DNA of 64,000 nt, taken from the NCBI GenBank assembly GCA_964016885.1, contig OZ024742.1, forward strand, positions 244,962,001 to 245,026,000, in the 5' to 3' direction. The notes under the pieces are model-generated. The model had not been told where the DNA came from. It saw nothing but the letters and a program-made list of their open reading frames with translations, and did no database searches. Below, piece by piece: positions 3,301-39,871 of this stretch. The DNA comes from Eledone cirrhosa (taxonomy: Eukaryota). Each line of letters starts with the position of its first letter. Positions within the stretch are counted from its first letter, which is position 1. The translations under genes were made by a program, and so were the position numbers.

Positions 3301-3578
3301 TTTGCTCAATGGGGAGAGACGGAGGCAGTGACAGTGGGAGTTTGGTTCCTTTATGTTCAGACCTCATACACACACACACACAGATATATATATATATATA
3401 TATCTATATATATAGTATTAAGGATACTATTTATGGTTATGTATATACTAAAACCTTAGATAGTAATATATATTTTAAACCCTAGACAGTGAAAGACAGT
3501 AATTTATTACTACATTATTAACAGTAAGATAAATAGCTCAATGTAATAACATCAGTTGTTCTACAGATACAGAGCAGT

Positions 3579-4003
3579 TATATAGAAATTACATGAATCA
3601 AAGTTCTGTTCAAATCATTTATTCGCTTACAATTGTTTCTTCCAAACCAAGGTTTGGAGTCTTCGGAGCAATTTTTCAATGATTGTTTACATACATGACC
3701 TCCTTTTCAATACAAGAGACATACAGAAACATATGTATATATCGATGCACAGTGGGTTGACATCCATTATAATATTTTAGCTTGGCAATTTACATTCAAA
3801 GATTAAAATCATATTATAATGGATGTCAACCCACTGTGCATCAATATATACATATGTTTCTGTATGTCTCTTGAAAAGGAGGTCATGTATGTAAACGATC
3901 ATTGAAAAATTGCTCCGAAGACTCCAAACTTCGGTTTGGAAGAAACAATTGTAAGCGAATAAATGATTTTGAACAGAACTTTGATTCATGTAATTTCTAT
4001 ATA
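3579..4003. repeat. Fold-back element, Penelope-like pLTR-derived
   Basis: Arms 3579-3775 / 3811-4003; TA tracts at about 3385-3412 and 3998-4021; hammerhead motif in the arms. Confidence 0.85.
3910..3958 (+). ncRNA. Minimal type-I hammerhead ribozyme motif (U4C variant)
   Basis: TTGCT-CCGAAGA-CTCCAAAC(TTCG)GTTTGGA-A-GAAA-CAATTG-TA-AGCGA: stem I, cUUCGg-capped stem II, palindromic stem III, GUA site. Antisense copy at about 3623-3671. Confidence 0.7.
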
Positions 4004-4084
4004 TATATATATATATATATAATGTTTCAGAAGATCCCGTTAAGGGTGAAAGCAGCGAATTTTTGCTTAAATTTTAATCTGTTA

Positions 4085-4159
<75 letters not shown>

Positions 4160-4182
4160 TTTACGGCCTCTGCTATAGAGAA

Positions 4183-4805
4183 AGAGTTAGAAAAAAAAAG
4201 GGAATTAAGTAACAAAATAAAGGAGGAGAAGGGACGAAAGGCATTACACCCTGTCTGAACGGTGTTTCAGCTGAGCCCCACGGATAAAATGGCAAAGGTA
4301 TTGCTGCGGTCAATGACCAGTGACATAAATATGTCAGCGATAGAATTCTTTTCTTTCTATTCGATTATCTATTAAGAGGTAGTCATGCATGTAGCTAAGC
4401 TATTATTAATTTGTTTCTATTTTAGGCCAAGGCCAGCAATTACCCAGTCCATTACTGGTACTTTATTTTATCGACCCCGTAAGGATGAAAGGCAAAGTTA
4501 ACCTCGGCAGGATTTGAACTCAGATCATAAAGGGACGTAACTCTATGCTTCAAAGCATGGTGTCCGACTCTCTACCGATACTGCCAATATTATTAATTTA
4601 ATGTTTTTTTTTCAGTAAAAGTTTCCTGGTATAAATTTTGCTTATATAAATTCCCCCTCGTGCTTTTTATATATATTTAAATACGCGCACATTTATACAC
4701 AGATAAACGCATTAAAAATATATACATGTACTTAAACACACACACACATATATATATATGCATATATATATATACACACACAATATGGGATGTCCACGTA
4801 AGCAT

Positions 4806-4845
<40 letters not shown>

Positions 4846-5642
4846 TATATATATATAAGTTAAAACAATGAAATAAAAAATCAAGTCATTAGAGATATAC
4901 TTCACTGATTTAATGTATTATCATCATCTAGAAACGATCGTAAAGCAGTGAAGTATATCTCTAATGACTTGATTTTTTTATTTCATTGTTTTAACTTATA
5001 TATATATATATATATATCAATGCTTACGTGGTCATCCCATATTGTGTGTATATATATATATATGCATATATATATATGTGTGTGTGTGTTTAAGTACATG
5101 TATATATTTTTAATGTGTTTATCTGTGTATAAATGTGCGCGTATTTAAATATATATAAAAAGCACGAGGGGGAATTTATATAAGCAAAATTTATACCAGG
5201 AAACTTATACTGAAAAAAAAACATTAAATTAATAATATTGGCAGTATCGGTAGAGAGTCGGACACCATGCTTTGAAGCATAGAGTTACGTCCCTTTATGA
5301 TCTGAATTCAAATCCCGCCGAGGTTAACTTTGCCTTTCATCCTTACGGGGTCGATAAAATAAAGTACCAGTAATGGACTGGGTAATTGCTGGCCTTGGCC
5401 TAAAATAGAAACAAATTAATAATAGCTTAGCTACATGCATGACTACCTCTTAATAGATAATCGAATAGAAAGAAAAGAATTCTATCGCTGACATATTTAT
5501 GTCACTGGTCATTGACCGCAGCAATACCTTTGCCATTTTATCCGTGGGGCTCAGCTGAAACACCGTTCAGACAGGGTGTAATGCCTTTCGTCCCTTCTCC
5601 TCCTTTATTTTGTTACTTAATTCCCTTTTTTTTTCTAACTCT
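4183..5642. repeat. Long near-perfect inverted duplication (about 700-bp arms) containing a SINE
   Basis: 4183-4912 is the reverse complement of 4941-5642 with about 6 substitutions and a TA-length difference; 4912-5000 is directly repeated at 5733-5822. Confidence 0.9.
4411..4587 (-). mobile_element. SINE family A (mirror copy at 5238-5415, plus)
   Basis: Family A consensus; lies in both arms of the 4183-5642 palindrome. Confidence 0.85.
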
Positions 5643-5824
5643 GTTAAAACAGCTGGTGATATGCATGTAAGTAAATATTCTCTCTATCTGATAGTTTGTA
5701 AACTACATAGATCAATAACTGAATATAGATACAATGTATTATCACCATCTAGAAACGATCGTAAAGCAGTGAAGTATATCTCTAATGACTTGATTTTTTT
5801 ATTTCATTGTTTTAACTTATATCA

Positions 5825-6060
5825 TGACTCTGTTTTCCTTTTAATGTCTACTCCCGAGTCTCCTGTCGGTTGGTTTTGCCCGTAAAATCTGTCCAGCGAT
5901 TCTTTTCTGAGACATTCTAACCACATGACCATAGTATTGGAGCTGTGATTTCTCAATTCGGAGAAGTAACTGCTTAACTGTAACTCTCTCATGTCTGAGA
6001 TATGCCCTCTATCGAGTAACGTTACTCCAAACACCCATCAAAGGAACCCCATTTTTTCTC
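5825..6060 (-). mobile_element. RTE-like LINE 3' fragment
   Basis: Similar to 50030-50240. Confidence 0.65.
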
Positions 6061-6477
6061 CTATTCTCCCTTTTGCAATGAAATACATTTAAATATAATT
6101 TAATGAGTCCACCTTGACTGATAAAGACATATCCGATCACTTCTAAATTTCATCTAATTTTACCTGTACAAGTACAGTTTATACATAAATTCAAAAACAG
6201 CTTAACTTCGACTTCGACTCATTGGTGTATCGATGAAATATTAGATATCGAAACAAACATTTGCAGATGATAAATAAAGAAACAATACAGCATACTTAGC
6301 TTTAGCTAGCATTTTTACAAAAACAAATAAAATATATAAATATACAAATATATTTAGTCTAAACGTGAGCATTGGTTTTCTTTTGATAGAGATCTCGTAC
6401 TGATAACGACGTAAAGTATTGTTTTGAAATAGTGATAAAGAAAATCGGTTTCTTTAACTGGCATGTTTACAATATCG

Positions 6478-6762
6478 ACCCAGGTTCTGCTGCACGTCAG
6501 GCTGAGGAGGCCAAACTCTTCAAATACCGGTCGCTCTCCGACAGGTTTGCGGTCGTACCCCTGGCAGTGGAGACTTCTGGTGTTCTCGGCCCAGAGCTAC
6601 CTCCTTACTCACCACCATAAGCGCTGAGTTGGCCAGCCGCAGCTGTGAGCCCCGCGAATTGGAGTGGCTTTTCCAGCGCGTCTCCCTTGCCGTCCTCCGG
6701 GGAAACGCCTTCTCCATTCTGTCCGCCGGGGCTGTGGGTGGGTCCCATCGCGTACCGTTGTA
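6478..6762 (+). mobile_element. CRE-like LINE 3' fragment
   Basis: Similar to 3017-3300 (AEEAKLFKY..PLAVETSGVLGP). Confidence 0.75.
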
Positions 6763-7197
6763 ATTGTTGTAGAAGAAACAAGAAGACATGTCTATCGTAA
6801 AAGGCTCTAATTAAATTGTTGTTGTTGTTGATGGTGATATTTAAAGCTATACATGCTTTAAAATATAATCAGTAACTTCTCACTTAAGCACATAACTGCC
6901 ATGAAAATATGGAACATAATGTTCGCAAATTGATAATTTGATTTTAATCGCTATCGAACTTGTTTCGTTTAAAAACAAATATGTCTCAAGAGGCCAATCG
7001 AAATTTCTTTACACGGAATTCTGAAAGAATGGACGCGCTGATAAGAACGAGTCTTGACCGTATCTCCAATAAACCCGATATAAGTCTCTGATATGCTGTT
7101 ATTATCTTGTTCCGGCTTAACACAATATACATTGATTTTTGAAAGGCAAGTTCCGTTGGGACGACAGTTTTTTTATTTGGTCGCTGCATTGCGGATT

Positions 7198-7290
7198 TCC
7201 TCCGCAAAATCAGAAACACAGTAGTCCGCCTGAGAAAGGAGCCCCGCGAGGTGGGGTGACAGTTGCAGCGAGTGTCACTGACCAGTCTCA
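7198..7290 (+). mobile_element. Short CRE-like LINE fragment
   Basis: Resembles the reverse complement of about 52110-52185. Confidence 0.5.
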
Positions 7291-7347
7291 GTTGAGGTAA
7301 CAATTGTTTGTAGCAATACAATTACAGGCATGATAAAAGACTATTAT

Positions 7348-7567
7348 TGGCGGTGGATTGGCAGTATCGGTAGAGCACCGAACACCATGCTTCGTGACAT
7401 AGAGTTACGTTCTTTATGTTCTGAGTTTAAATCTTGCCAATGTTAACTTTGCCTTTCATCCTTACGGAGTCTATAAAATAAAGTACCAGTAACGCACTGG
7501 GGTCGATTTAAATGACTTTCCCCTCACCCAAAATTGTTGACCTTGTGCCTAAATCAGAAACCATTAT
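7348..7567 (+). mobile_element. SINE family A (long-tail variant)
   Basis: Family A consensus; another copy at about 8106-8325 (minus). Confidence 0.85.
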
Positions 7568-8363: not shown

Positions 8364-8442
8364 CACGGTGTCCTAAAAATGTCTACACAGTTCAACAGCA
8401 TTCTAATAAATATGTGTATACATTTTTGGGCGACAACCTGTG
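8364..8442. mobile_element. Very short Tc1-like MITE
   Basis: Imperfect TIRs CACGGTGTCCTAAAAATGT.. / ..ACATTTTTGGGCGACAACCTG. Confidence 0.5.
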
Positions 8443-8778
8443 TATATAATCGATAATTTCACATAGTTCTCGCCCATCGTATGCTTCAATGTAAACATCA
8501 AACGGTTCGTCTTTGTATTTAAATTAACCTAGCACGAGTTATCAAACACAAAAGGATTTGCTTGTATTTATAATTACCTGGTTTACTAAGTGTTACAATG
8601 GTGTTCACTCAGCAAGAGTTTGGATTAGGATGAGTTTAGCTATGGAAGAATATAATGCCATAATATCAAATTAAGTAAATTTATCGTTTTGTTTGTTATT
8701 GTTTCTACTTTTGGCACAAGGTCAGCAATTATCCCAGTGCATTACTAGTACTTTATTTTATCGACCTCGTAAGGCTGA

Positions 8779-11235: not shown

Positions 11236-12116
11236 GGATTGGTAGAGGGTCGGACACCCTGCTTTGCAACACAGAGTTACGGCACTTTATGGTCTGAGTT
11301 CAAATCCCGCCGAGGTTAACTTTGCCTTTCATCCTTACGAGGTCGATAAAATAAAGTACCAGTAATGTAATAGGTAATTGTTGGCTTTGTGCCTAAAGTA
11401 GAAACAATTATATATAGGGCGGTGGATTGGCAGTATTGGTAGAGCGCCAGACACCATGCTTTGCAGCATAGAGTTTTGGCCCTTTAAATTCTGAGTTCAA
11501 ATCCCGCCGAGGTTAACTTTGCCTTTTATCCTCACGGGGTCGATAAAATAAAGTACTATTAATGCACTGGGATAATTGCTGGCCTTGTGCCAAAAGTAGA
11601 AACAATTATTTTTATTATCTTATATATATATATATATATTCTAGCCAATTAAGATAGGACTTATAACCCTACTGAAACTCAATGTAGTCTAGATATGAAT
11701 ATCCCATCGACAAAGCGAAATTTGTTTTTCTGGAAAAGTAGTGCCTTCGTACATGTTGAGTCAGATATTATAACGAGGTTTAGTATCTAAATTAATCCAT
11801 TGTTTTACGACCGTTTCAAAGGGCAAACTAATTTAAGATATTATCGATATATTTATGGAAACATTGTTTCTGAGGATGAACGGCAAAATTGATGAATTGG
11901 ATCGAAACTTTACTATGGACTGGCATAACTGCTATCGACCAGTATCAGTAGAGAGTAGGACGCCATGCTTTGACGCATAGAGTTACAGCCCTTGCCATTC
12001 TGAGTTCAAATCCCGCCGAGGTTAACTTTGCCTTTCATCCTTACGGGGTCGATAAAATAAAGTACCAGTAATACACTGGGTAATTGCTGGCCTTGTGCCA
12101 AAAGTAGAAACAATTA
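11236..12116 (+). mobile_element. Three SINE family A copies (11236-11410, 11417-11608, 11940-12116)
   Basis: Family A consensus. Confidence 0.85.
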
Positions 12117-14006
12117 TATCCATATCATAATCTATTTTGCCCTTCGAAGCGATCGTAAAACAATGAATTAATTTAAGTATTAAACCTTGTCTTATTTGTT
12201 TCCACGATTCAACTTTATATAAATGATATTAAATATTAGAGTCAGCTCTACACACCAGTTTGATATTGACAAAAAACAACACAGCTACACCAAACAAAAG
12301 ATACGTAGTTCAGTTTCCATCATTCGTTTCACAGTTTCTTTTCGATCTCAAATTGTCTTACAAATAAGATAATGTTTAAGGAGTTCATCCTTACCAAACA
12401 CACACTGGCACACTGTATACGTGTATATATGTATGTGTGTGCGTGTTCGTACATGCGTTCATGCACAGAAAAATCTTTTTTTGTTTGTTTTGCAGGAGCT
12501 GGTTGCTTAGAAACAGGAATGGAAGGGGATTTCTTTCTTTTTTTTCCCCTGTCTCTCTTGGAATTATTTCCAAATAAATTAGATACTAGGTATATTTGGT
12601 CGACAAGTAAAGCAAGAGACAGTTAATTAACATCATTGCTGCTTCAAAATTTCGCTGTCATATAGCATGTAAAGTTACTGACTGTGAACGAATCTATGTG
12701 CAGAAGGTTTGGACAGGGAAAGTGGGTCGATCGTAATCTGCTTCAGCTCATTGGGACTTTGACCAGAATAAACGTATAAAGAAAGCGAAATGAATTATTG
12801 ATATTCTACTACGGAAGTGACTGAGAAGGAAGCATATGTCAAACACGTACGTAGACGCACGTACACCCAAACAAACGCAAACACACTCACGTATACTCAC
12901 GTACACTCACTTCCAGACATACACATATGCTGACACACATACTTGCAGGCTTGCACATATGCAGACATACTCGTACGTGTACGCACATATATAGATGTAG
13001 TAAAAAAAAAAGGGGCTGGGGAGAGAAAGGGAGTATATGATTCTAGCAATGTTTGTTGCTATGCAATTGATTCAATGTAATTCAGTGACATTGTGGAAGA
13101 AGAGCAGGAATTTCCTACAATATTATCTACAACTAAATTAACATCTCTACTACCGAGAATGATAAAGAGTTTGCTAAAGTTGATCCATATTTTAGAGATG
13201 TTGACATTTAATGTAATTGATAGTGTAAGGTCACTTCTCTTCTGTCAAATAACAAAGGAAAGAAAAAGAAAAAAAAAACAACTCTCAGGAACGAATGAAA
13301 AAAATATATATATATAAAATTAAAAAAAAAAGTATTTTCTAGAAAAATTTTAAGAGAATTTTTTTTATAGTCCATAAAGTGTATTTTCATTTTAAATCCA
13401 TGTAGTAGTCAGTCGATCGACTTTCATCAAATCGGACCGATGAAATAATGTTTCCATTGGTCTTTCCAATTGCTAATACTATCTATCGGTCACAAATCCA
13501 GGTAGAAAGAGCAACGTGAAATAAAGAAACTTGCTCAAGGACATAACGCATCGCCCGGTCCGGTAATCAAACTCACGATTGCAAATCCAATTCTCTAGCA
13601 ACTCAGCCACGCGCCTTAGTAGCAATCAATGTGGTTTTATTGCATTATATATAAATCACTATGTATGTATGGACCCTTAACACCTAATAGAATCGTAGGG
13701 GTGCCGCAGATTCATACACCGTGTCTTGGGCATTTTAAGCCAGGCGGAGGCCTTACTCTCCCTCTTCAGGTGTGAATACAGCCGATTTTTTCTAGAGAAT
13801 GGAACAGAGAGAGCCGACCCGATCCCAGTACTTTACTCCCCTCCCCCCTGCAAGAATGAAAGTTAAAGTTGACCCCGGTGGATTTTCAACTCTGAACGCA
13901 GAGAGCGGGAATGATTACCGCAAAGCATTCTATCTGATGTTTTAACGACTCTGCCAATCGACAGGCTTGATAAATCGCTACGGAGATTGATATTTCAAAT
14001 ATACAG

Positions 14007-15440: not shown

Positions 15441-18400
15441 TCATATATAAAGAGTCTTGCAAAGCTTCTTGGGCCAATGTACTCGCCGACCGCTACGTGT
15501 GGTGGTGACATATGTAGGTGTAGGTGTGTGCGATGTTATATGTGTATTGTGGCTTGGCTGATGCCAGGTGTATGTGGGGGGAAAATGGGGCTCTTGTGTG
15601 AGAGTGTCTGTATAGGCCCGTTTTACCCTGTCAATGGACACAGTCTCTTTTTTACCCCCAATGTCTAGGGTGAATAGCTTATCTGTGCGCTCAAGCACGC
15701 GATAGGGACCGGTATAAGGTGGCATGAGAGGAGCTCTCACGGCGTCCTTTCGTAAAAAGACGTGGGTCCATGAAGCAATGTCTTTCGGGACCGAAGATTT
15801 GATTGTCTGTTGGCGAGGGTGCATAGGCGGAAGATTGCTGAAATATGATTGCAGTCTGCTCACATACAGAGCTGGGTCTGTTGCTGGTAGGTCCAATGGA
15901 GCTAACATCTGACCAGGCAGAGATATAGGCACTCCGTAAACCAACTCGGCGGGGGAGTAGCCTAGATCTTCCTTGATGGCTGCACGACAGCCCAGGAGGA
16001 CAATTGGTACATATTCGCTCCACCGCTGCTGATCCGGATAAGCGCGCAGTGCGGCTTTCAATTGGCGGTGGAAGCGTTCAATCATTCCGTTAGAAGCTGG
16101 ATGGTAGCTGGTCGTTCGAATGCGTTGCATTCCCAGGATCCTTGAAAGCTCTCGGAAAAGGTGTGACTCAAATTGTCCACCGCGGTCAGTGGTGATAGTG
16201 GCTGGAACTCCGTAACACGATATCCAACCCGACACTAGAGCTCGCGCCACAGATTCCGCCGAAATGTCACTTAAAGGAATGGCTTCAGGCCAACGTGTGA
16301 AGCGATCTATGCAGGTCAGGAGGTATGTAAATCCTCGGCTGACCGGCCATGGTCCGACAAGATCTATATGGACATGGCTGAACCTAGCGTCTGGAGTGCT
16401 GAAAGTTCCAAGGGGTGCGCGGATGTGTTTGTGCACCTTTGACTTTTGGCAGGATAGGCAGGAACGTGTCCAGGCAGTGATGTCACGCCTCATATTAGGC
16501 CAGAAGAATCTAGCCGAAATGAGCTTCACTGTGGTCGATATTCCAGGGTGTGCCAGACCGTGCAAGGTGTCGAAAACTGCTCGACGATGAGTCACTGGCA
16601 CTAGAGGGCGAGGTGCATCTGTCGAGGTGTCGCAGATAATCTGTGTGTCCGAAGTGGGCACAGGCAGATATGCAAATTTGCCAGTTGCAAATTCAGAAGA
16701 CGAGAGGTCCAAAGTATCCAGAGGTGGTTGTTCTGTGGCCATTCGTTGGAGGTCGATTTCCGCTGGCGATGACAGGGAATTAATTGGGAGGCGAGACAGT
16801 GCATATGCCGCCGCATTCTGTTCACCAGAGATGTGTCGGATATCGCTGGTAAATTGCGAAACGAAGTCCAAGTGGCGAGTTTCGCGAGGTGAATATTTGT
16901 CCGGCTTAGAACGCAGTGCGAACGTAAGCGGACGGTGGTCAGTGTATATAACAAATTGGCGACCCTCCAGTGAATGCCGAAAGTGTTTCACTGCAAGGTA
17001 CATAGCCAAGAGTTCACGGCCGAATGTGCTATACCGTGTTTCTGCAGGCTTCAGCTGTTTAGAAAAGTAGGCAAGAGGTTGTAACTGTTGTTGGTGATGT
17101 TGCAGTACTGCACCTACAGCTGTGCTTGATGCATCAACAACCAGTGAAAACTGGGCACCAGACACAGGATGTGCAAGCAGTGATGTCTCCGCAAGCTTCC
17201 GCTTCACTTCGTCGAAGGCTTTTAGCTGATTCGTGTCCAATGAAATGGAATCGTTCTTCTTTTTCCTGTTACGTAACAGGTCGGACAGAGGAGACAGGAG
17301 ATCCGCACAGTGTGGGATAAAGCGCCTGTAATAGTTCAGTAGCCCAAGGAAATGTCGTAGTTGACGAAGTGAAGTGGGTGGTTGGAGGTCTTGTACCGCT
17401 TTCACTTTATCAGGTAGTGGCGAAATTCCTTCTGGGCTGATGACATGGCCCAAGAAGACAAGTGAGGAAGCACCGAAAACACATTTTGCCGGATTAATTC
17501 TCACTTGGTATTTTTGAAATCTCTCGAACAGGAGACGGAGGTGATTGACATGTTCCTCAGGTGAGGCACTTGCCACAAGAATGTCGTCGATGTAGTTGTA
17601 CACGAAGTCTAAATCGCGCACAACCTCATCCATAAATCGTTGGAACGTGCTGGCTGCGTTTCGCAAACCGAAAGGCATGGTCAAAAATTCAAACGCTCCA
17701 AATGGAGTTGTTACTGCAGTTTTAGGTATGTCTGCCGGGTTCACCGGGATTTGGTGGTATGCTTTGACCAAATCCAATTTGGAGAATATGTTGCATCCAT
17801 GCAGCGAAGATGCAAAATCCTGTATGTGTGGTATCGGGTAGCGGTCGGGTACCGTCATTGCATTTAACCGGCGAAAGTCCCCAGTGGGACGCCAATCACC
17901 GGAACGCTTTGGTACCAAATGCAAGGGTGCGGCCCACGGGCTTGAGGATGGGCGAATGATCCCGAGCTGCAGCATGTGATTGAATTCAGCCCTTGCGGCC
18001 TTCAGTTTCTCAGCAGAGAGACGGCGAGGGCGCGAAAACACAGGAGCTCCGGATGTTTCAATGTGGTGCTTGGTGGAGTGAGTAGGCTCACTCATCACAA
18101 AATTCAAATTTGTTAATTCCGGGAAGGAATGCAAAAGTGATTGGTAAGGATTTTCTGTAGCAGCGATAAAGAAGACCGGGCTGACCGACGAGACAGTCGA
18201 TCTGGTACCCGGCACAGACAGTTCTGTGTTGGCATCCAACAACCGGCGTCTGCGCATATCCACTATCAAGTTATAGTGGTGCAGGAAATCTGAGCCTAGG
18301 ATGGGGTAAGGCAGATCAGCAACAGTGAAGATCCACGTGAAATCTCTACGCAATTCTAGGTTCAAAGAACGAGAAATCTGACCGTACGTGGGGATCGGTG

Positions 18401-18617
18401 ACTGGTTTACTGCTTGCAGAGAGACGGTTGAGAGTTGGGGCTTCTCTTTGAGAAGTTTTAGCGGCCAAATGCTACAAGCCGCGCCGGTGTCGATCAGACA
18501 ACGTGCTTGCGACTCAGTGTCTGTGATGAAAAACACACGGTTATTAGGGAGGGTCAGAGGAGACTGTGCCGTGCTCAGGTCTCCTGAAATCTGTTTCTCT
18601 GGTCTGAAAATGTACAA
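15441..18617 (-). CDS. pol: Pol polyprotein (protease, RT, RNase H, integrase), probably expressed by -1 frameshift from gag
   Basis: Uninterrupted 1058-aa ORF: LIDTGA protease; PFGLRNA and YIDD (RT); VDAS..ELLA..TDH (RNase H); HxxxH/CxxC, D,D-E and GPY (integrase). Overlaps the end of gag in the -1 frame. Confidence 0.95.
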
Positions 18618-19483
18618 GGCTGTTTACAGGAGCGTGCTGCTGCGCCAAAACGGCTGTGGTAGTAACACAAACCTGAACTGCTTGTGTGACGGCGTCGTGG
18701 CGATGGTGAACGGCTCTGGAAACGGCGTCTGGGCGAATGAGCCCTGTGAGTGCTTAGTTTTCTCACTTCCTTGGTTAGCTGCTCTATTGCTTGCAGCATT
18801 GCTGCATTTGCAAGTGACTGGTCGGTATAACTGGCAGCCGCTGGAGTGAAGGAAGCGACCGCAGTCGGCGGCTGGGATACATTGAAGGAGACAGGAGCGA
18901 ACGGATTGACCGCAGCCGGTGGCTGAGGTGCCTGGAAGGAGGCAGGAGAGAACGGATTGACCGCAGCCGGTGGCTGAGGTGCCTGGAAGGGGGCAAATGA
19001 GGCTGGGTGTCCGATGACACTCATAACCCTGTCGGCCGAAGCCGCTAGCTGGTCGACAGGAGCAGCCTCCATCATGGGCGCTAAGATCGCCTGAACTCCG
19101 GGGGGTAGCCTTGAGACAAAAAGCTGTCTAAGGAGGGCACTGTCAGCTGGGGCATCTTCCGCCAGCTCTCTCATCCGACGCAGTAGTTGTGTGGGCGTCC
19201 GATCACCCAAATGTTCGTCATTGACGAGCGTCTGAAATTTTTTTTCTGCGGACAATGTGGTCCGCCGCAACACTTCGAGCTTCACGCTCTCATAGGAGAC
19301 CCCAGGGCGAGGATCGGTAATTAAGTCTTTGACGACCGACGTCAATGACGCTGGAAAAGCGCTTAACAGGAGATTTAACTGTCTGTGGTCACTGGTGATG
19401 TTATTCGCTGTGAAATGTGCTTCTATCTGGGCGAACCAGACAGTGACGTCACCGGTAAACGGTGGCAATGAAGTGCTACCCAT
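18575..19483 (-). CDS. gag: Gag protein (302 aa from the first ATG) with CHCC zinc knuckle
   Basis: ORF 18575-19513, ATG at 19483 ([18 protein letters not shown]); C-terminal [18 protein letters not shown]; internal duplicated [13 protein letters not shown] (51-nt repeat). Confidence 0.9.
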
Positions 19484-20142
19484 TGTGTATACTGATGTAA
19501 AAGCAAAGGGCAAAGAAAGGACAACTCTGCACTTGTCACCGAGACAAAAGTGAAAATTCAGGCCAAGAAAAAATATAATCCGAGTGAAGGACAGAAAAAG
19601 AAAAATATATCAAAAACAATGTTGGAGGGAAAAACGTCAAGCTTTAAAAAAAAAAATTATGATTTATCTTTGTCCTATTATTATTATTATTATTATTTTT
19701 TTTTTTTTTTTGTGTACTTTTCAAAATGGCGTTGCCTCCGTCATTTTGGCGGGAAAACAGCTGAAGAAGACGGAAGTCGGCCATCTTGCTCTGTCCGGCT
19801 ATCAGCGCCAACAGTTTTTCTTTTAGTTTTTTTATAGCGTCGCCCAATCAGAAATTTAGAGGGAAAAATAAGATTTTTGTATTAACGCATGTGTTCGGTG
19901 ATGTTAGAAAGTGAAGGTGTGATGTGCAGATTTAGTAACAATAAGACAATATATCAAATACATATTAGGACTCACGCTAATCGCGTACATACCCCGAGAA
20001 AAGGCGAGTGGCTTTTTTTTTGGGGGGGGGGGGGGGGATGCGAAATGTTGATGTGTTCGTTGCAACGGAAAGATGTGGTTTCTTCTGTGTTGATGTCCTT
20101 AAACGTTCGGGTCACCATTTATAATGTGATTTGTTGTATCGT

Positions 20143-21512: not shown

Positions 21513-21550
<38 letters not shown>

Positions 21551-21633
21551 AAGTTTTATTTAAATTGTTGGGTTACAACGAGTAAATATTTATAACTGAT
21601 ATAAAAGCACTCAACAAGTATTTGGAGTATATT

Positions 21634-21999
21634 TACGATATTAAATAAATGGAAACTATATTTATAAAACCATATTTATTTCATTATACATATTTCAGGG
21701 ATATCATATTAAAAATATGGTATGCCTTCATCAGACAAAATACAATATAAACAGTCTTATAAATAGATAGATTTGACATACCTTACAACTTCAACTTCCA
21801 TTTAAAAATCAACTACCAAATCAACTTTTTAAATGGAAGTTGAAGTTGTAAGGTATGTCAAATCTATCTATTTATAAGACTGTTTATATTGTATTTTGTC
21901 TGATGAAGGCATACCATATTTTTAATATGATATCCCTGAAATATGTATAATGAATAAATATGGTTTTATAAATATAGTTTCCATTTATTTAATATCGTA
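21634..21999. repeat. Fold-back element, Penelope-like pLTR-derived
   Basis: Arms 21634-21808 / 21826-21999, near identical, 17-nt loop; about 85-bp unpaired extension on the left; TA tracts on both sides. Confidence 0.9.
21894..21955 (+). ncRNA. Minimal type-I hammerhead ribozyme motif
   Basis: TTTTGT-CTGATGA-AGG..CCT-GAAA-TATGTA-TA-ATGAAT with canonical core; mirror copy on minus in the left arm. Confidence 0.75.
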
Positions 22000-22135
22000 T
22001 ATATATATATATATATATATATATGTAGAGGTTATATTTAATTTGTTGGGATTCAACAAGCTTAAAAGTTTTTATAACTGATATAAAGCACTCAACAAGT
22101 TAGTGGAGTAAATACACAACATATTAAAAGATGGG

Positions 22136-22766
22136 AAACTATATTTATAAAACCATATTTATTTATTTTATTATACAAAGTTATCAAAGTTATATTTCAA
22201 GGGCGACCAAGGTAAATTATGGTGCGCTTTCATCAGATAAAATACAGATTTGTTTTATAAATAAATAGACATACCCGGAAAAAAACAACCTCAACGGTTG
22301 AAATTTGCTGGATAGTGGAGATACTTGAGCGTGATACAAAGTTGTGAGTGAGTATGTAAATGAGTGAGTATGCAATTTGAGAGGGAGAGAGATAAAGAGA
22401 ATAGATTCTCTTTATCTATTCTCTTTATCTCTCTCCCTCTCAAATGTTTGTCTCTCTCCTTTTTACATCTATTTTGTCTCTCTCCCTTTTACATCTATTT
22501 TCTTCCAACAGTTTAATTTAAATAAACCGTTGCTTTTTTCAATTTTTCCGACACTCATTTGCATACTCACTCACAACTCTGTGTCACCCTCAAGTATCTC
22601 CACTATCCAGCGAATTTCAACCGTTGAGGTTGTCTTTTTTCCGGGTATGTCAATATTTATTTATAAAACAAATTTGTATTTCATCTGATGAAAGCGTACC
22701 ATAATTTACCTTGGTCGCCCTTGAAATATATATAATAAAATAAATATGGTTTTATAAATATAGTTT
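22136..22766. repeat. Fold-back element related to the 21634 element
   Basis: Arms 22136-22366 / 22552-22766; left extension 22025-22135 similar to 21548-21655; GA/TC hairpin in the spacer (about 22379-22441). Confidence 0.85.
22679..22741 (+). ncRNA. Minimal type-I hammerhead ribozyme motif
   Basis: TTTCAT-CTGATGA-AAGCG..CGCCCTT-GAAA-TATATA-TA-ATAAAA with canonical core and palindromic stem III. Confidence 0.75.
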
Positions 22767-22785
22767 GCATTTATTAATTAATATA

Positions 22786-23020: not shown

Positions 23021-23097
23021 ATATATTGAGTTAGAAACTCAAAATAGTCTCTTACAATTAAATAGCTCAAGGAAAGAGATTTTTCCGGGCCATGTAA

Positions 23098-23604
23098 TAT
23101 AATTGAATATATAAGAGAGATAACACAGATATATACATATATGTGTTCAAATTGTAAGGGACCAGATTCGCTAAGGTGAAAAAAATACTAACTATGAACA
23201 ATAGGGTTTGCCAGACTCAATTTAAAAGAATAAATCAAGAAAAGAAATACAAACCGATATTGGCACCCAGACAGATTTTGGTAATGCTGTTTCGCAATTT
23301 TAGTGAAGGGAATTACCAATTCTTTTGCTCATCAGTGGGTGTAAAAATTAGTAAACCCTTCACTTCTAAGTATCTCAGAAGACTGAATAGTGTACGTATA
23401 TAAAATAACGCACATGGCATCAGAACCCAGCGTGTCTCATAAACGTATACTCCTAAAAATAGCAGCCAAGTTTACTCGACTGAGTCTGGCAAACCCTATT
23501 GTTCATAGTTAGTATTTTTTTTCACCCTAGCGAATCTGGTCCCTTATGATTTGAACACATATATGTATATATCTGTGTTTATCTCTCTTTTATATTCAAT
23601 TATA
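23098..23604. repeat. Fold-back element between TA tracts
   Basis: Arms 23098-23219 / 23481-23604; only a degenerate GAACA-CATATATG-TA half-motif. Confidence 0.8.
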
Positions 23605-23965
23605 TATATCTATATATATATATATGTTCACCCAAACGGAAATAATTTAGGATATTGACATCCATACGAGCTAGATGAGAGAATAAAAAATTATTCATTG
23701 CGTAAAATATATGTCTGGGAAGGAATTTCCAGATTAATCTAGTTTTACGGATTAAGGGAGCTGAAAAAATAGATAGTATGGATATGGCTGTGAGAATAGG
23801 ATGAAGCAGGTTGCGATTAGTAGCTTAAAAAATGGAAAATTATGAAAAGTCATCACTCTATGTGGTTTTTCTAATTGGTTTCTGTCATAAAAGCTGAGAC
23901 TGGATCTACCGAAATAAGAAAACTGTTTCAATATTGCAATTGCATAAAAATCTTTCACATATCAT

Positions 23966-25810: not shown

Positions 25811-26658
25811 ATCATCGCCACCACCACCATCATCATCGCCGCCACCACCATCATCATCATCGCCACCATCATCATCGCCACCATCATCATCGTCGCCACC
25901 ATCATCATCGTCACCACCATCATCGTCACCACCATCATCATCATCATCGCCACCACCATCATCATCGCCGCCACCATCATCATCATCGCCACCATCATCA
26001 TCATCATCGCCGCCACCATCATCATCGCCACCATCATCATCGCCGCCATCATCATCGTCATCGCCACCATCATCGCCACCGCCACCATCATCGCCACCAC
26101 CACCATCATCGCCACCACCACCATCATCATCGTCGCCACCATCATCACCATCGCCACCATCATCATCGCCGCCATCATCATCATCGCCACCATCATCATC
26201 ATCATCATCATCGCCACCATCATCGTCATCGCCATCGCCACCATCATCGTCATCGTCACCATCATCATCGTCACCATCATCGCCACCACCACCATCATCA
26301 TCGCCACCACCACCATCATCACCATCGCCACCATCATCATCACCATTGCCACCACCATCACCATCACCATCGCCACCATCGCCACCATCACCATCGCCAC
26401 CATCACCATCGCCACCATCACCATCGCCACCATCACCATCGCCATCACCATCGCCACCATCATCGCCATCGCCACCATCATCGTCATCGCCACCATCATC
26501 ATCGTCACCATCATCGCCACCACCACCATCATCACCATCGCCACCATCATCATCACCATCGCTACCACCACCATCATCACCATCACCATCGCCACCGCCA
26601 CCATCACCATCGCCACCACCATCACCATCGCCACCATCACCATCGGTATCATCGCCAC
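25811..26658. repeat. Compound trinucleotide repeat (CAT/CAC/CGC/CGT)n
   Basis: About 850 bp of in-phase triplets; followed by (CTA)n near 26750-26822. Confidence 0.95.
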
Positions 26659-27592: not shown

Positions 27593-27649
27593 TCACTCAA
27601 TCTCAATCAGTCTCGTCCTACCAAAGTCATTCTTCCGAGATCGATAAAA

Positions 27650-30879: not shown

Positions 30880-31660
30880 GCTAGCTCTACAACGCGCACC
30901 TGGTTATTTATCACCCAATGCTAGCTCTACAACGCGCACCTGGTTATTTATCACCCAATGTTAGCTCTACAATGCGCACCTGGTTATTTATCACCCAATG
31001 CTAGCTCTACAACGCGCACCTGGTTATTTATCACCCAATGTTAGCTCTACAATGCGCACCTGGTTATTTATCACCCAATGCTAGCTCTACAATGCGCACC
31101 TGGTTATTTATCACCCAATGCTAGCTCTACAATGTGCACCTGGTTATTTATCACCCAATGCTAGCTCTACAATGTGCACCTGGTTATTTATCACCCAATG
31201 CTAGTTCTACAATGCGCACCTGGTTATTTATCACCCAATGCTAGCTCTACAACGCACACCTGGTTATTTATCACCCAATGCTAGCTCTACAACGCGCACC
31301 TGGTTATTTATCACCCAATGCTAGCTCTACAACGCGCACCTGGTTATTTATCACCCAATGTTAGCTCTACAACGCGCACCTGGTTATTTATCACCCAATG
31401 CTAGCTCTACAATGCGCACCTGGTTATTTATCCCCTAAAGCTAGCTCTACAATGTGCACCTGGTTATTTATCACCAATGCTAGCTCTACAATGCGCACCT
31501 GGTTATTTATCACCAATGCTAGCTCTACAATGCGCACCTGGTTATTTATCACCTATGGCCAGCTCTAAAGTATTCTCCCGTGTAGTTTTTATCCGGGGCT
31601 ATCTCTACAATGTACTTCTGAGTATTTAGCAACCAAGGCTAGCTTTACAATGTGTACCTT
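30880..31660. repeat. 40-bp minisatellite, about 17 good units plus a decayed tail
   Basis: Unit GCTAGCTCTACAAYGCGCACCTGGTTATTTATCACCCAAT. Confidence 0.95.
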
Positions 31661-33285: not shown

Positions 33286-35325
33286 TCATTTCACATGGCT
33301 CCTTCTGCTTCATTTCACATTGTTCCTTCTGTTTCATTTCACATTGCTCCTTCTGCCTCATATCACGTTGCCCCTTCTGCTTCATTTCACATTTCTCCTT
33401 CTGCCTCATTTCACATTGCTCCTTCTGCTTCATTTCACATTTCTCCTTCTGCTCCATTTCACATTTCTCCTTCTGCTTCATTTCACATTGCTCCTTCTGC
33501 CTCATATCACATGGCTCCTTCTGCTTCATTTCACATTTCTCCTTCTGCTTCATTTCACATTGCTCCTTCTGCCTCATTTCACATTTCTCCTTCTGCCTCA
33601 TTTCACATTGCTCCTTCTGCTTCATTTCACATTGCTCCTTCTGCCTCATATCACATTTCTCCTTCTGCCTCATATCACATTTCTCCTTCTGCTTCATTTC
33701 ACATTTCTCCTTCTGCTTCATTTCACGTTGCTCCTTCTGCTTCATTTCACATATCTCCTTCTGCTTCAATTCACATTTCTCCTTCTGCCTCATTTCACAT
33801 TGCTCCTTCTGCCTCATTTCACATTGCTCCTTCTGCCTCATTTCACATTGCTCCTTCTGCTTCATTTCACATTGCTCCTTCTGCCTAATTTCACATTTCT
33901 CCTTCTGCCTCATATCACATTGCTCCTTCTGCATCATTTCACATCGCTCCTTCTGCTTCATTTCACATTTCTCCTTCTGCTTCATTTCACATTTCTCCCT
34001 CTGTTTCATTTCACATTGCTCCTTCTGCCTCATTTCACATTTCTCCTTCTGCGTCATTTCACATTGCTCCTTCTGCCTCATTTCACATTGCTCCTTCTGC
34101 CTCATTTCACATTGCTCCTTCTGCCTCATTTCACATTTCTCCTTCTGCCTCATATCACATGGCTCCTTCTGCTTCATTTCACATTTCTCCTTCTGCTTCA
34201 TTTCACATTGCTCCTTCTGCCTCATTTCACATTTCTCCTTCTGCCTCATTTCACATTTCTCCTTCTGCCTCATTTCACATTGCTCCTTCTGCCTCATATC
34301 ACATTTCTCCTTCTGCCTCATATCACATTTCTCCTTCTGCTTCATTTCACATTTCTCCTTCTGCTTCATTTCACGTTGCTCCTTCTGCTTCATTTCACAT
34401 TTCTCCTTCTGCTTCAATTCACATTTCTCCTTCTGCCTCATTTCACATTGCTCCTTCTGCCTCATTTCACATTGCTCCTTCTGCCTCATTTCACATTGCT
34501 CCTTCTGCTTCATTTCACATTGCTCCTTCTGCCTAATTTCGCATTTCTCCTTCTGCCTCATATCACATTGCTCCTTCTGCCTCATTTCACATCGCTCCTT
34601 CTGCTTCATTTCACATTTCTCCTTCTGCTTCATTTCACATTTCTCCCTCTGCTTCATTTCACATTGCTCCTTCTGCCTCATTTCACATTTCTCCTTCTGC
34701 CTCATTTCACATTGCTCCTTCTGCCTCATTTCACATTGCTCCTTCTGCCTCATTTCACATTGCTCCTTCTGCCTCATTTCACATTTCTCCTTCTGCCTCA
34801 TATCACATGGCTCCTTCTGCTTCATTTCACATTTCTCCTTCTGCTTCATTTCACATTGCTCCTTCTGCCTCATTTCACATTTCTCCTTCTGCCTCATTTC
34901 ACGTTTCTCCTTCTGCCTCATTTCACATTTCTCCTTCTGCCTCATTTCACATTGCTCCTTCTGCCTCATATCACATTGCTCCTTCTGCCTCATATCACAT
35001 TTCTCCTTCTGCCTCATTTCACATTGCTCCTTCTGCCCCATATCACATTTCTCCTTCTGCTTCATTTCACATTGCTCCTTCTGCCTCATTTCACATTTCT
35101 CCTTCTGCCCCATTTCACATTGCTCCTTCTGCCTCATATCACGTTGCTCCTTCTGCCCCATTTCACATTGCTCCTTCTGCTTCATTTCACATTGCTCCTT
35201 CTGCCTCATATCACATTTCTCCTTCTGCCTAATTTCACATTTCTCCTTCTGCCTCATTTCACATTTCTCCTTCTGCTTCATTTCACATTTCTCCTTCTGC
35301 CTCATTTCACATTGCTCCTTTTGCT
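33286..35325. repeat. 24-bp minisatellite, about 85 units
   Basis: Unit CATTTCACATTKCTCCTTCTGCYT. Confidence 0.95.
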
Positions 35326-37450
35326 AGGAAAGCCCAATGAAAACATTGTTTCCTTGGTCCGATTTGACAAGTTCCAACCCACTCTGTAAGCGAATGAGGT
35401 CTGTGATCTTGTCGATCAATTCGATCGATCTTGTTTTAATTGTTTAAAACACACACATTGTTGCAGTCTCTTATTAATAGGCATCCTATTTCACACACAG
35501 GGCAGCCTATATTTTGAGTCCTGTGGGTAGAAATTCAAAATACATTTCTAGACTGTTAGTTGCAGGAAACTTTGGTGACGCTATATAGCGTCACCACCTT
35601 CTACTCCCCCTTCCTACTCATGTCACGATCATGATACAAGACAGCAACATCAGCAGCAATAGATATGAAGCTACTGTAGAGTGTCACGTTACTTTTCCTG
35701 CCTAAACAACAGCTAACCAGACCAGAACAACATTACACCACCACAGTAAAAGCTAATGCTGCCAATAAGATTAGCAGCAGCGGCAAAAGCACCGGCGCCA
35801 ATTGAACTCTGAGCCCAATTGACAACATATTTTCTTTGAGTTACAAACAGAACTGTAATACTCCCCCCCCCCCCCCCGTTGCAGCAAAAGAAGCAGGACT
35901 CTCAAAGATCTTCCTGTTCAGCAAGAACTCATGTTTGACACAGGTGGTCAAATTAGTGAAAGTGGATAGGAGAAGGGTCCAATTAGCTATCCCATCAGAG
36001 GTGTTGGTAGCAACTGCGGGAAGAACGGTACTATATCATTGCATTTCGGTAAAAGCTTGACATCTAGAAGCAACAACACTGGTCCAAATTGTGAGGTCAT
36101 TAAAAAAATATGACCCGACGTTGAATTCGTCGCAGCGGCAAGAAGGTTTGAGGGCGTGGAAGAGTTTTTTCCGAAGCGTGGCCCTCACGATAAAACATTC
36201 TGCAGTCCCCTGTCGCAACAACGATTACATGCTTTCCTATAATATTTAGGGGGGAAAAACGGTAAGGATCAGGTTTTCGAGTGTCATTTATTTATGATGT
36301 GATGCCAACCACAAAAACGGGGGGCCGTAACATCCTCCGGCAGTAGTAGTAGTAGTAGTAGTTGTTGTTGTTAATGGGCCCTTTTAGAGCTGCATGAGCT
36401 TTGAAGAATTTCTAGATTACTTTCAGAATTGTTTCTGCATTCTGTCCTGTAGACTTGTTTTATAGAAGGGTGAAAAGTTTTACTCCTGTTTGGGGAATCT
36501 TGGTCGATGTATGGAACAAAATGGTTTCGAATAGCTTGTGGATGGCATATGGAAGTGTGTCTCGTTTTCAATACTAGAGACGAAGGAAAAAAAGCAGGTC
36601 AAGCTGGTGTTACAAACCTGCCCATACAATGGGGCCACAATGCATGCGATGACGATGTAATGTGAAGGTCATAGCAAAACATATTGCTGATGACCTTGAT
36701 TCGGTGTCACATTTGTGACACAGTACAGGCAGGTGGTGATACAGAGGTGATACACAACAACTGGTGATGTGAACCAACCCGTTGGAGACCTTTAACCAAT
36801 GCCACTATTGTTTATCAAATTCGATATAAAATAAACTAAGTAACCCCACATTGTTTATTCACACGAGTTTTTCTCGCAGGACATTTCCAACCAAGTGGAA
36901 TACTTTCCTTGTGATATACGTATAAACATAAATGGAAATAAATCTGTATCTGAATTCTCGAAGTATCCACGTATTTTGTTATTCAACATCATTAGCAACT
37001 TTATGGAATCAACTGTCCACAAACAAGAACACGAACAGACAGACAATTGCGATTCCGATCAAATTAGAATGTAGCAGATTACACTCCTTTTGTCAAACCT
37101 CAGGATAACAGATGAGCTTGTGGTATTGTCTGGCTCAAACGACTGTACGAAGAAAGGAACGGTTGCGATCAAGTTGTAAATTCAACTAAAAATCAAAGTG
37201 GATACGGAATAAGCTGTTTACATGGAGCTACCGTAATCAGACATGCATTAACGTCACGTTATTTTTATAGGTCAATTCTCTGATCTCATCCACCAGTCAC
37301 ACTAGAATCAATACTTTACTTACTTGTGTTCTTGTCAATGCATATAAAAACAAGCTGATGACTCAACGTTATTTGCACGCGCAACTCTCTTCAATTGATG
37401 TTTCACGCCAATCATTAGAAAATGGACATTTTTTTCTGACCTGTTCTACA

Positions 37451-37485
<35 letters not shown>

Positions 37486-37530
37486 GCACACACACACCAC
37501 TGATACATGCACCACACACAGACACACACA

Positions 37531-37728
37531 CGAGGGTCGGCTGAAATGTTCATAGACTGACCAAGATACTCTCATGGAATGATCAAATGAGGTTTAATTT
37601 TCAGCATATTCTTTGGAAAAAAACAACAATGCAGTTATTAATAAGAGTTGAAATTAATGCATGCAAGATTTCACATATCTAACATCACTCCTTCATAGTC
37701 AGCTTATGGATTTTTCAGCCCACCCTCG
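37531..37728. mobile_element. Mariner-type MITE
   Basis: TIRs CGAGGGTCGGCTGAAA / TTTCAGCCCACCCTCG; TA on the right, CA on the left. Confidence 0.75.
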
Positions 37729-37762
37729 TATATGATGTACTCAATACCGAAGTAGAGTTTTA

Positions 37763-37912
37763 ATATTCATTTTATTAAGGCTAAATAGTGAGTTTTGTTA
37801 CTCTGGAGATTCGCCTGTTTATCACAGGGTCATCTTGTCTGATAACCCTGCGATAAACAAGCGAAACTCCAGAGTAACAAGACTCACTATTTAGCCTTAA
37901 TAAAATGAATAT
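37763..37912. repeat. Short fold-back element made mostly of a hammerhead motif and its mirror
   Basis: Arms 37763-37834 / 37841-37912. Confidence 0.85.
37834..37881 (+). ncRNA. Type-I hammerhead ribozyme motif (G8A in this arm; the mirror arm has GATGA)
   Basis: CTTGT-CTGATAA-CCCTGCGATAAACAAGC-GAAA-CTC(CA)GAG-TA-ACAAG; perfect stem I; the mirror arm restores stem II CCTGT/ACAGG. Confidence 0.7.
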
Positions 37913-38545
37913 ATGAGTTCCATTCTCGGACCGAGTGATATATTGTGTCCTTGAGCAAGACACTTTATTTCACGTTGCTTCAGTTCACTCAGCTGTAGAA
38001 ATGAGTTACAGCGTCACTGGCGTTAAGCTGTATCGGCTATTGCCTTTCCTTTGGACAACATAGGTGGCTTGGAGAAAGGAAGCTGGTATTCATGGGCGAC
38101 TGCTGGTCTTCCACAAACAAACGTTGCTCAGGCTTGTGCTTCAGAGGGAAACTTTCTAGGTGCAAAACCATGATAATTCGTGACCGAGTGGGGCCTTAAA
38201 ATAAATAAAGTAAATAAATAAATATATATAATATACATATACACAAACAAAGGAACCTCGATTCCCGAACATTTCGTGTGACGAACGGCCTCCAGGAATG
38301 AATTAAGTTCGTGAGCCGAGGTTCCACTATATGTGTGTGTGTAATTATGGGTTTTATATCGAATAATAATATTCGATTCGTTTTCAAGCAAACAGCCCCA
38401 TTATGCTATATTCTGTTTTTGATGACCATCGTCATCCGTTTTTTTAATAAGAGCATCGAAGAACAGTCAACATGTTTCTGGGTTATTTCCCTTCATCTTC
38501 CCTGCTACTCGTTTCAACTGTTGAAACTACATAGTATTTTCTGAA

Positions 38546-38581
<36 letters not shown>

Positions 38582-38829
38582 ATATATATAAAGAGAGTGT
38601 GTGTGCGTGTGTGTGTATTTGAAAATATATAATACGTTTATATATAATAAACATATGGGTAGCCTCGCTGCCGAGGAAACATACTTTTTCGTAAAGAAAT
38701 GAAATGAAAAAAATTGTATTTTTCTCTATTATCCTCTGTGAATATATTACAGAGTTGCCAGTATGTTCTGAGAATGTCAGACAGCATTGTTTCAAGGTTT
38801 AATCTTTCATCAGTGACACTCATTCAAAA

Positions 38830-39150
38830 TGTACTGGCAGGAAATAGCCTATATAGAATTTTGCGTGATGATCAGATGCTTATTTCTATATAACAAATAG
38901 AAAACATCGGCTGGAAATGGTCATTTGCATGTAGTGTGAGCTTGGCCTGGTTATGTGTAATTGGCAGTCGCACTAAGACAGGGTTCGTCAGGTACTTATA
39001 AGAGGAATACTGTTTGCGGATGACACAGCAATGCCAGCGTACTCTGAGAAGCAAATACAGCAACTCATTGACAAACACTGGAGATCACCGGGAATTCAGC
39101 CTGACCATTAGCCTGAAGAAAACCAACGTGGGTTAACGTGTTAAGCATCC
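38830..39150 (+). mobile_element. RTE-like LINE RT fragment
   Basis: ..EILFADDTA motif, decayed. Confidence 0.55.
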
Positions 39151-39526
39151 CATACCATTACCATCAACTATAATATAATATATATATATAAATATAGTAA
39201 GAATAATAATGATTTCTTTATTGGCAGACCATTGGTGGATTGGCAGTATCGGTAGAGGGTCGGACGCCATGCTTTCCAGCACAGTTACGTCCCTTTACGG
39301 TCTGAGTTCAAATCCCGGCGAGGTTAACTTTGCCTTTCATCCTTACGGGGTCGATAAAATAAAGTACCAGTAATGTACTGGGTAATTGATGGCCTTGTGC
39401 CAAAAGTGGAAACAATTATATATATATATATATATATATATACTTGTGTAAAGGCGTGTGGCTGAGTGGTAAGAGAATTGGATTAACTCAAATATCGAGT
39501 TTTGAAACGCGAGTGTATTAGAATTC

Positions 39527-39824
39527 ATATAAAAATGGAAAAACTCGGCAGCAAGGAAGCTGCTAAAACAGCGAAATGCCGTCGAAACGACGTTGGGTAA
39601 AACATTACCTCGGAGGATAGAAATTAACGGCTCGAAGAATTGATAGGAAGGAAGAAATAGAATGGATGATAGGAGATCACAAACATTTAAATACATTCAT
39701 TCTATTTCTTCCTTCCTATCAATTCTTCGAGCCACTGATTTCTGTCCTACGAGGTAATGTTTTACTCAACGTCATTTCGACAGCAATTTGCTGTTTTGAC
39801 AGCTTCCTTGCGCCGGGTTTTTCC

Positions 39825-39834
<10 letters not shown>
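39527..39834. repeat. Older fold-back element next to TA tracts
   Basis: Arms 39527-39668 / 39694-39834, roughly 85-90% identical. Confidence 0.8.

Positions 39835-39871
<37 letters not shown>

Follow-up and report, generated by a model that had tools for sequence, protein, structure and literature searches.

Seven inverted repeats fold back on themselves within a 64,000-nucleotide (nt) stretch of the Eledone cirrhosa genome (GenBank assembly GCA_964016885.1, contig OZ024742.1, forward-strand positions 244,962,001 to 245,026,000; hereafter the window), and several of their arms carry hammerhead ribozymes. Are these hairpins mobile elements in their own right, or are they what remains when some other element inserts? 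We conclude, with a probability of roughly 0.8, that they are head-to-head, 5'-truncated ends of Penelope-like elements (PLEs) or of hammerhead-bearing monomers, one end tailed and the other tailless, lying in (TA)n and likely primed from both strands of the target. As such, the hairpins are known PLE anatomy and ordinary by-products of insertion. Their interest, which we rate as moderate, lies in a strict rule governing the two ends, in the PLE marks found on non-coding monomers, and in a hammerhead variant of type SGC.

Self-BLAST of the window recovered all seven inverted repeats of a preliminary description of this DNA: E1 (3579-4003), E2 (4183-5642), E3 (21634-21999), E4 (22136-22766), E5 (23098-23604), E6 (37763-37912) and E7 (39527-39834). 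Their arms are 84-96% self-complementary, and those of E2 99%. As that description held, they stem from several unrelated families, of which we count six, with E3 and E4 belonging to one; the family of the E2 core (4853-5847) is called P. Likewise, six lie in or beside TA tracts, whereas the flanks of E6 within the window are not TA-rich, and the unpaired extension described for left arms only is found there in 6/6 simple elements. These six are built from the following parts (pLTR, pseudo-long terminal repeat):

3414-3578, minus strand: E1 tail, about 160 nt, on the left arm only
3579-3819, minus strand: E1 left arm, the pLTR of a Hydra-like PLE, with a hammerhead at 3623-3671
3811-4003, plus strand: E1 right arm, tailless, with a type-I hammerhead at 3910-3958
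21550-21808, minus strand: E3 left arm with a tail of about 84 nt (21550-21633) and a type-I hammerhead at 21677-21742
21826-22005, plus strand: E3 right arm, tailless, with a type-I hammerhead at 21895-21954
22031-22366, minus strand: E4 left arm with tail, a subfamily of E3, with a hammerhead carrying a stem III insertion at 22158-22244
22552-22784, plus strand: E4 right arm, tailless, with a hammerhead at about 22678-22745
23026-23480, minus strand: E5 left arm with a tail of about 90 nt, a piece of a 519-nt non-coding monomer, with one type-I hammerhead at 23256-23343
23481-23605, plus strand: E5 right arm, tailless
37737-37834, minus strand: E6 left arm with part of a 56-nt tail
37833-37912, plus strand: E6 right arm, tailless, with a degenerate type-I hammerhead; the junction is at the family hot spot
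39482-39693, minus strand: E7 left arm with tail, a piece of a non-coding monomer of about 600 nt, ending just 3' of the family's type-SGC core
39694-39834, plus strand: E7 right arm, tailless

The E1 arms overlap by 9 nt at their junction. The loop of E4 (22375-22501) contains an inner 71-nt hairpin and a 26-nt tandem, which suggests repeated template switches at the junction. Tail side, left in these six and right in E2, may reflect chance or a strand bias from a host transcript.

A descriptor scan placed one outward-pointing type-I hammerhead in each arm of E1 and E3; that of the E1 right arm has the core CCGAAGA, a palindromic stem III and a C10.1-A11.1 mismatch. E4 also has one in each arm, the left one with its stem III insertion. 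Four elements had been said to carry readable type-I hammerheads in both arms. E6 is degenerate on both sides, its right core reading CTGATAA (G8A) and its left arm lacking the start of the core; the single motif in the unpaired middle of E5 (23256-23343, minus strand) had been overlooked. E2 and E7 contain no complete hammerhead motif, their copies ending a few bases short of the family core, and several window copies thus have no intact core. In family P (L228-L256), the hammerhead combines a U3-A8 core, a variant that we take to be already known, with a very long stem II, and shares the C-A mismatch at 10.1:11.1 with E1. An Rfam scan of the window returned 56 matches at E<=1, with no hammerhead among them and none at the gathering score. 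A lone type-I hammerhead-like motif with an 8-bp stem I lies outside the listed elements (38766-38821, minus strand).

To which elements do these arms belong? Each family was searched in its own 3.0-Gb genome, where 40 candidates were scored and the best 30 fetched per search; the fetched loci are thus best-scoring ones and not a random sample, and the numbers of first-look candidates (E1 1821, E3 220, E6 405 and 1170, E7 356, E5 2553, P 1203) are not copy numbers. Among the 16 long loci fetched for E1, its pLTRs flank open reading frames (ORFs) with reverse transcriptase (RT) and a GIY-YIG endonuclease (EN) in L031-L036 and L046, with a tandem arrangement of the PLE in L033/L034 and a unit period of about 4.2 kb. 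Family P has an RT in L257, 51% identical to that of E1 over 365 aa, and an EN in L258. For E3/E4, locus L341, with arms of 1.5 kb, has an EN ORF (EN only) and a 1.35-kb untranslated region (UTR) upstream of the pLTR. The link to PLEs that had been proposed from the hammerheads is thus borne out by ORFs between or upstream of the pLTRs of all three families.

Translation of the E1 ORF revealed RWR at the RWK position, DKT, a CxCX5C linker, no CCHH, and CxxC plus CxH near the end of the EN; the P ORF has DKT, and the E3 ORF CxCX5C, CxxC and CxH. The E1 protein has 550 homologues at E<=0.001, the top named ones from Argonauta. The Hydra clade comprises PLEs with a C-terminal EN, the motifs RWK, DKT, CxCX5C and CxxC/CxH, no CCHH, and a (TA)n target (PMC8557442; here and below, published work is cited from the available sections of each paper). 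Of these motifs E1 shares DKT, CxCX5C, CxxC/CxH and the lack of CCHH, P shares DKT, and E3 shares CxCX5C and CxxC/CxH, in addition to (TA)n insertion and hammerheads, whereas E1 has RWR instead of RWK, and the units are longer than the <3 kb reported there (about 4.2 kb in E1, with 3' UTRs of 1.3-1.5 kb in P and E3). Judged by these motifs, E1, P and E3/E4 are pLTRs of autonomous elements with RT and/or GIY-YIG of Hydra-clade character. Two neighbouring observations concern other PLEs. Locus L039 (2564-6213) holds an unrelated one, with a 784-aa RT and GIY-YIG frame (Pfam RVT_1, GIY-YIG) and a 455-aa frame upstream, and a short repeat between TA tracts at 4022-4090, which also stands beside PLE insertions in L013, L025, L096 and L252, is possibly another PLE end.

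We next ask how the two arms are put together. For a census of insertion ends, 210 loci were fetched over six families, 13 duplicates were dropped, and both arms were mapped in the remaining 197. In the 101 loci where both ends could be classified, 98 pair a tailed with a tailless end, 3 have two tailless ends and 0 have two tails (Fisher p=1e-25). Either arm may be the longer: in the 98 mixed pairs it is the tailless arm in 49 and the tailed arm in 30, the two being equal in 19. Ten arms consist of the tail only, and in 88/98 pairs the arms overlap and duplicate sequence. The ORF follows neither end, being in the tailless arm in L031 (a 3-kb ORF arm), in the tailed arm in L032 and in both arms in L035/L036. 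Tails measure about 45-160 nt, and TA-rich DNA adjoins 139/189 defined ends.

In all six families the inner breakpoints range from tail-only arms to several kilobases; therefore, the palindrome is made anew at each insertion. At 92 adjacent junctions, with edges taken from BLAST and hence approximate, 41 overlap by 1-9 nt and 4 are blunt. P and E6 show a cluster of breakpoints immediately 5' of their hammerhead core, partly through query bias; with a junction-free query, 9/16 E6 partner arms end at -82 to -73. We considered truncation at the hammerhead cleavage site and rejected it, since the P and E6 breakpoints lie 5' of the core and a loose grouping near the site is seen in E5 alone. In E3, the two arms differ from each other by 2.9% and from the family by 9.5%, and at polymorphic sites they share 64 rare or minor alleles against 10 differences.

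From this anatomy (family membership, the partners of E1, P and E3/E4, the E5 and E7 tandems, the variable breakpoints and the one-tail rule), we infer priming from both target strands. The PLE protein, probably as a dimer, would nick both strands of (TA)n. One reverse transcription would begin where the tail ends the RNA and the other at an upstream, tailless site; their template would mostly be a single RNA, or else sister RNAs from one source. The RT primed at the tail would displace the other cDNA, a step in keeping with PLE RTs not being known to carry RNase H. Both would halt early, in many cases where the hammerhead folds, after which the 3' ends of the two cDNAs would be joined by short microhomology or with a few filler bases. 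E5 and E7 may depend on mobilisation in trans, with uncleaved RNA, either multimeric or circular, as the template.

Published biochemistry fits these steps: the PLE protein studied in vitro cuts both strands and extends them, its RT starts at two sites that bound the tail, and a dimer is predicted (PMC11167929). The insertions share with those of other EN-bearing (EN+) PLEs head-to-head pLTRs, partial tandems, a tail at one end, (TA)n targets and pLTR hammerheads (PMC8557442; PMC3846280). Those papers give tails of 30-40 nt and describe the tail as optional or often one-sided; by contrast, tails are longer here, and the ends mixed in 98 and double-tailed in 0 of 101 loci. The mechanism of the inverted pLTR and one-sided tail is called undefined in PMC8557442, and we did not find a model with two strands and two start sites in the literature searched, most subscription papers lying outside the search.

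LINE-1 twin priming likewise uses two primers on opposite target strands, with the inversion joined by microhomology, and matches the ten tail-only arms. Here, by contrast, the arms overlap in 88/98 pairs, and each of the two start sites has a fixed position on the RNA.

Several observations count against two-ended priming. No partner arm was found within about 1.5 kb at 68/197 loci, and 28/197 have an unclassifiable end; 47/92 junctions carry extra bases rather than an overlap. The idea of a shared template draws chiefly on E3, and arms made alike by gene conversion could give the same picture; elsewhere the arms are only slightly closer to each other than to the family, and in P not at all (2.5 and 3.8% in E1, 2.2 and 2.0% in P, 4.8 and 5.4% in E5, 11.0 and 12.3% in E6, 12.3 and 14.7% in E7). 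An antisense arm of another PLE family adjoins 2/89 unpaired arms, an arrangement that calls for a second RNA or for the nesting of one event in another. Pfam matched no family on three E1 ORF pieces, and the search for RT and GIY-YIG partners that succeeded for E1, P and E3 (EN only) found no autonomous partner for E5, E6 or E7 among the fetched loci. Finally, no priming intermediate has been observed.

The best-surviving alternative is self-priming, the published explanation of head-to-head repeats by copying on an antisense template (PMC3846280), in which the tailed strand would fold back and copy itself and the endonuclease would trim the second arm at the tailless site. Palindromes with short junction overlaps and the alleles shared by the E3 arms are what it would produce, as are the 30 pairs with a longer tailed arm and the 19 equal ones. 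But under self-priming the tailed arm should never be the shorter, whereas the tailless arm is longer in 49/98 pairs, ten arms are tail only, and the 3-kb ORF arm of L031 is the tailless one. Self-priming would thus require a deletion in half of the events; with about half of the pairs against it, it is unlikely, and remains only as a minor route. It is in this respect that the 98:3:0 count of end types, with either arm the longer, discriminates between models of PLE insertion.

A second alternative, raised in its retrozyme-like form in the preliminary description beside truncated PLEs, is that true non-autonomous palindromes, similar to miniature inverted-repeat transposable elements or to palindromic retrozymes, move as whole hairpins with fixed boundaries. 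The recurrent E6 junction just 5' of the core, with 9/16 partner arms ending at -82 to -73, resembles such a boundary. Yet at this junction the tail may sit on the longer or on the shorter arm, E6 copies extend several hundred nt further upstream, and the wide variation of inner breakpoints in six families, from tail-only arms to several kilobases, leaves neither a fixed inner structure nor symmetrical ends. We regard this as very improbable. Otherwise both readings of that description hold, each for different families: E1, the E2 core and E3/E4 are truncated PLEs, and E5 and E7 non-autonomous monomers, though not palindromic ones.

That the hairpins are assembly or library fold-back artefacts is scarcely credible: inverted repeats in TA tracts are prone to them and no listed contig spans the inner junctions of E1, E3, E4 and E5, but the arms differ by 1-16%, the outer ends are family-specific, a 124-nt contig spans the E2 joint at 5642 with 0 differences in runs X1 and X2 (the sample being probably that of the assembly), and an artefact cannot produce the one-tail rule.

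Does two-ended priming also account for E2, which had been taken for a fold-back element? The inverted repeat is real, but its 646-nt arms are duplicated host DNA, as the following parts make clear:

4183-4828, plus strand: segment A, host DNA (old repeat fragment, short interspersed nuclear element (SINE) and unique sequence), original copy
4853-4912, minus strand: family P pLTR, tailless left arm, 59 nt
4912-5001, plus strand: family P pLTR, second tailless piece, 88 nt, inside the duplication
4997-5642, minus strand: segment A', the inverted copy of A, 99% identical
5646-5847, plus strand: family P pLTR and start of the tail, beginning 3 nt inside the U3-A8 hammerhead core; the tail is cut by another repeat

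The order is thus A, (TA)n, tailless P arm, second tailless P piece, (TA)n, inverted A, tailed P arm. A 201-nt query from the E2 arm, searched in its own genome, had a 100% match only to both arms, the 38 other matches being 74-89% identical and covering at most about 130 nt; because only the arms themselves match fully, we assign them to the host and not to the element. The joint at 5642 has a 2-nt microhomology. In the simplest reading, which we infer from this order, E2 would have arisen by the same two-ended reaction, with the tail-primed cDNA jumping through the 2-nt microhomology onto 646 nt of neighbouring host DNA.

How often do such events occur? The 64-kb window holds 9 fold-backs; in fetched flanks, which are non-random, we counted 4 per 87 kb, 13 per 106 kb and 19 per 100 kb, or one per 5-22 kb. 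A density of one per about 5-20 kb is thus plausible. The preliminary description proposed that hairpins of this kind would be a large source of dsRNA and self-cleaving RNA in a lineage known for heavy ADAR editing; such effects would be possible consequences, and several window copies lack an intact core.

The families without an autonomous partner raise a further question, namely what kind of units they are. E5 and E7 units follow one another as tail, short spacer and next unit, with periods of 519 (E5) and 519-699 (E7). A query across the tail-to-next-unit junction of E5 found a near full-length match in 40/40 scored candidates, and that of E7 gave 28 matches. Only E5 has a type-I hammerhead per non-coding unit; in E7 we found no type-I hammerhead, the family motif having SGC order. 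On these features E5 and E7 are retrozyme-like, non-coding tandem monomers, E7 being a variant with a type-SGC motif. Upstream, E6 copies continue for several hundred nt in a long UTR of low complexity, where we found neither an ORF nor a tandem in the fetched loci.

Retrozymes have been proposed as PLE derivatives or as PLE-dependent (PMC7761336; bioRxiv 10.64898/2026.07.22.740005). E5 resembles the metazoan non-LTR retrozymes of these studies in being a non-coding tandem monomer with a type-I hammerhead. In contrast to the retrozymes of these studies, the arrays here are shorter than about two units, the monomers show the marks of PLE insertion (tailed and tailless ends, an inverted arm, a TA target), and E7 and three further families, F2, F3 and F4, are type SGC instead of type I. 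Such PLE marks, seen on E5 and E7, support on structural grounds the idea that retrozyme-like monomers use PLE machinery. Distances between units (7.3 vs 8.1%, 4.4 vs 4.7% and 13.3 vs 16.6%, from 11/30, 9/30 and 5/25 usable loci) do not separate a circular template from a linear multimer.

In L343 (1520-2340) and L344 (1493-2163), an E5 arm stands head to head with the pLTR arm of an element in L040 that has a C-terminal EN and whose ORF gave 20463 first-look candidates; Pfam found no match on the L040 piece. These joint arms suggest either that one insertion drew on two RNAs or that the L040 element is a candidate for mobilising E5. The same ORF was rejected as a Naiad partner, its EN being C-terminal. 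A longer E5 parent, considered from L173/L185, was discarded because the upstream DNA is the antisense arm of another PLE family.

Upon close examination of the E7 family, whose window copy ends just short of the core, we noticed that the hammerhead blocks follow an unusual order: NUH-stem I, then GAAA-stem III, then stem I-CUGAUGA. Across 24 copies, stem I is 91.5% paired with 3 two-sided pairs and stem III 95% paired, likewise with 3. A direct multi-pair stem II is absent from E7: only pair 10.1:11.1, which across families is GC, GU, AU or UA, forms directly, and both flanks pair with an upstream strand. An eight-helix model of the 24 copies is 89.5% paired with 12 two-sided pairs, above 500/500 shuffles, and slid controls reach 29-45%; the model was derived from the same 24 sequences, and the copies are related. 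A bulged direct stem II, 87.7% paired, is an alternative to the putative four-way junction.

The same order recurs elsewhere. Scanning the fetched loci before any targeted search gave 28 matches against 2 in shuffles; after targeted searches there were 104 (58 distinct) in 1.80 Mb of loci, enriched by those searches, against a mean of 0.33 in 3 local shuffles. The matches fall into four families, E7, F2, F3 and F4, whose stem sequences differ and stay paired. First-look candidates numbered 2201 for F2 (best copies 98-99% alike), 1548 for F3 and 1194 for F4. Periods are 519 and 565 in F2 and 413 in F4; both form partial tandems, and F2 has tailed and tailless inverted arms. F2, which is young and has a 519-nt monomer, and F3 combine SGC hammerheads with TA-targeted inverted insertions (L224:1871-2722; L117; L016:588-1041). 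For F4, 20/30 copies could be parsed, at least one of them falsely. A look upstream of the SGC matches in the fetched loci turned up no RT ORF. The window itself holds an F4 copy:

43237-43480, plus strand: F4 copy containing the hammerhead; the family forms partial tandems of period 413 (L406)
43382-43450, plus strand: F4 hammerhead of type-SGC order, with the predicted site GUA after 43391, GAAA at 43408-43411 and the core CTGAAGA at 43435-43441

E7 and the three further families thus carry a type-SGC, non-circularly permuted hammerhead that is predicted to cleave itself. A ribozyme of this type (HRIMA-1) has been published from metatranscriptomes and, in the available sections of that paper, from no genome of a known organism except for one type-GCS candidate (PMC10085705). 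The two have in common the order site-GAAA-CUGAnGA, the conserved core bases and covarying stems I and III. In contrast to HRIMA-1 (PMC10085705), the motif resides here in animal genomic repeats, only one base pair of stem II would form directly, an additional 5' strand extending the stem by way of a four-way junction, and a second helix lengthens stem III. The presence of type-SGC hammerheads in multicopy repeats of an animal would widen the range of a ribozyme known from metatranscriptomes, and standard searches miss it. A broader proposal, which we put forward tentatively and at somewhat less than even odds, is that PLE integration is obligatorily two-ended on one RNA, with an RT at each of the tail and tailless start sites and each primed by a different target strand, and that thousands of protein-free monomers, including the four SGC families with a four-way-junction stem II, would cleave themselves, circularise and ride on it.

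The remainder of the window holds repeats of other kinds. ORFs resembling gag/pol of long terminal repeat (LTR) retrotransposons lie at 15441-19609 and 57311-60167, both on the minus strand, one with an open pol frame of 1060 aa and the other broken. Long minisatellites rich in CCA/TCA, with 40-nt and 24-nt units, occupy 25819-26644, 30880-31567 and 33286-35324. A SINE-like repeat of about 185 nt is abundant in both orientations (852-1038, 4404-4588, 11940-12126 and others) and explains most of the long-range inverted pairs.

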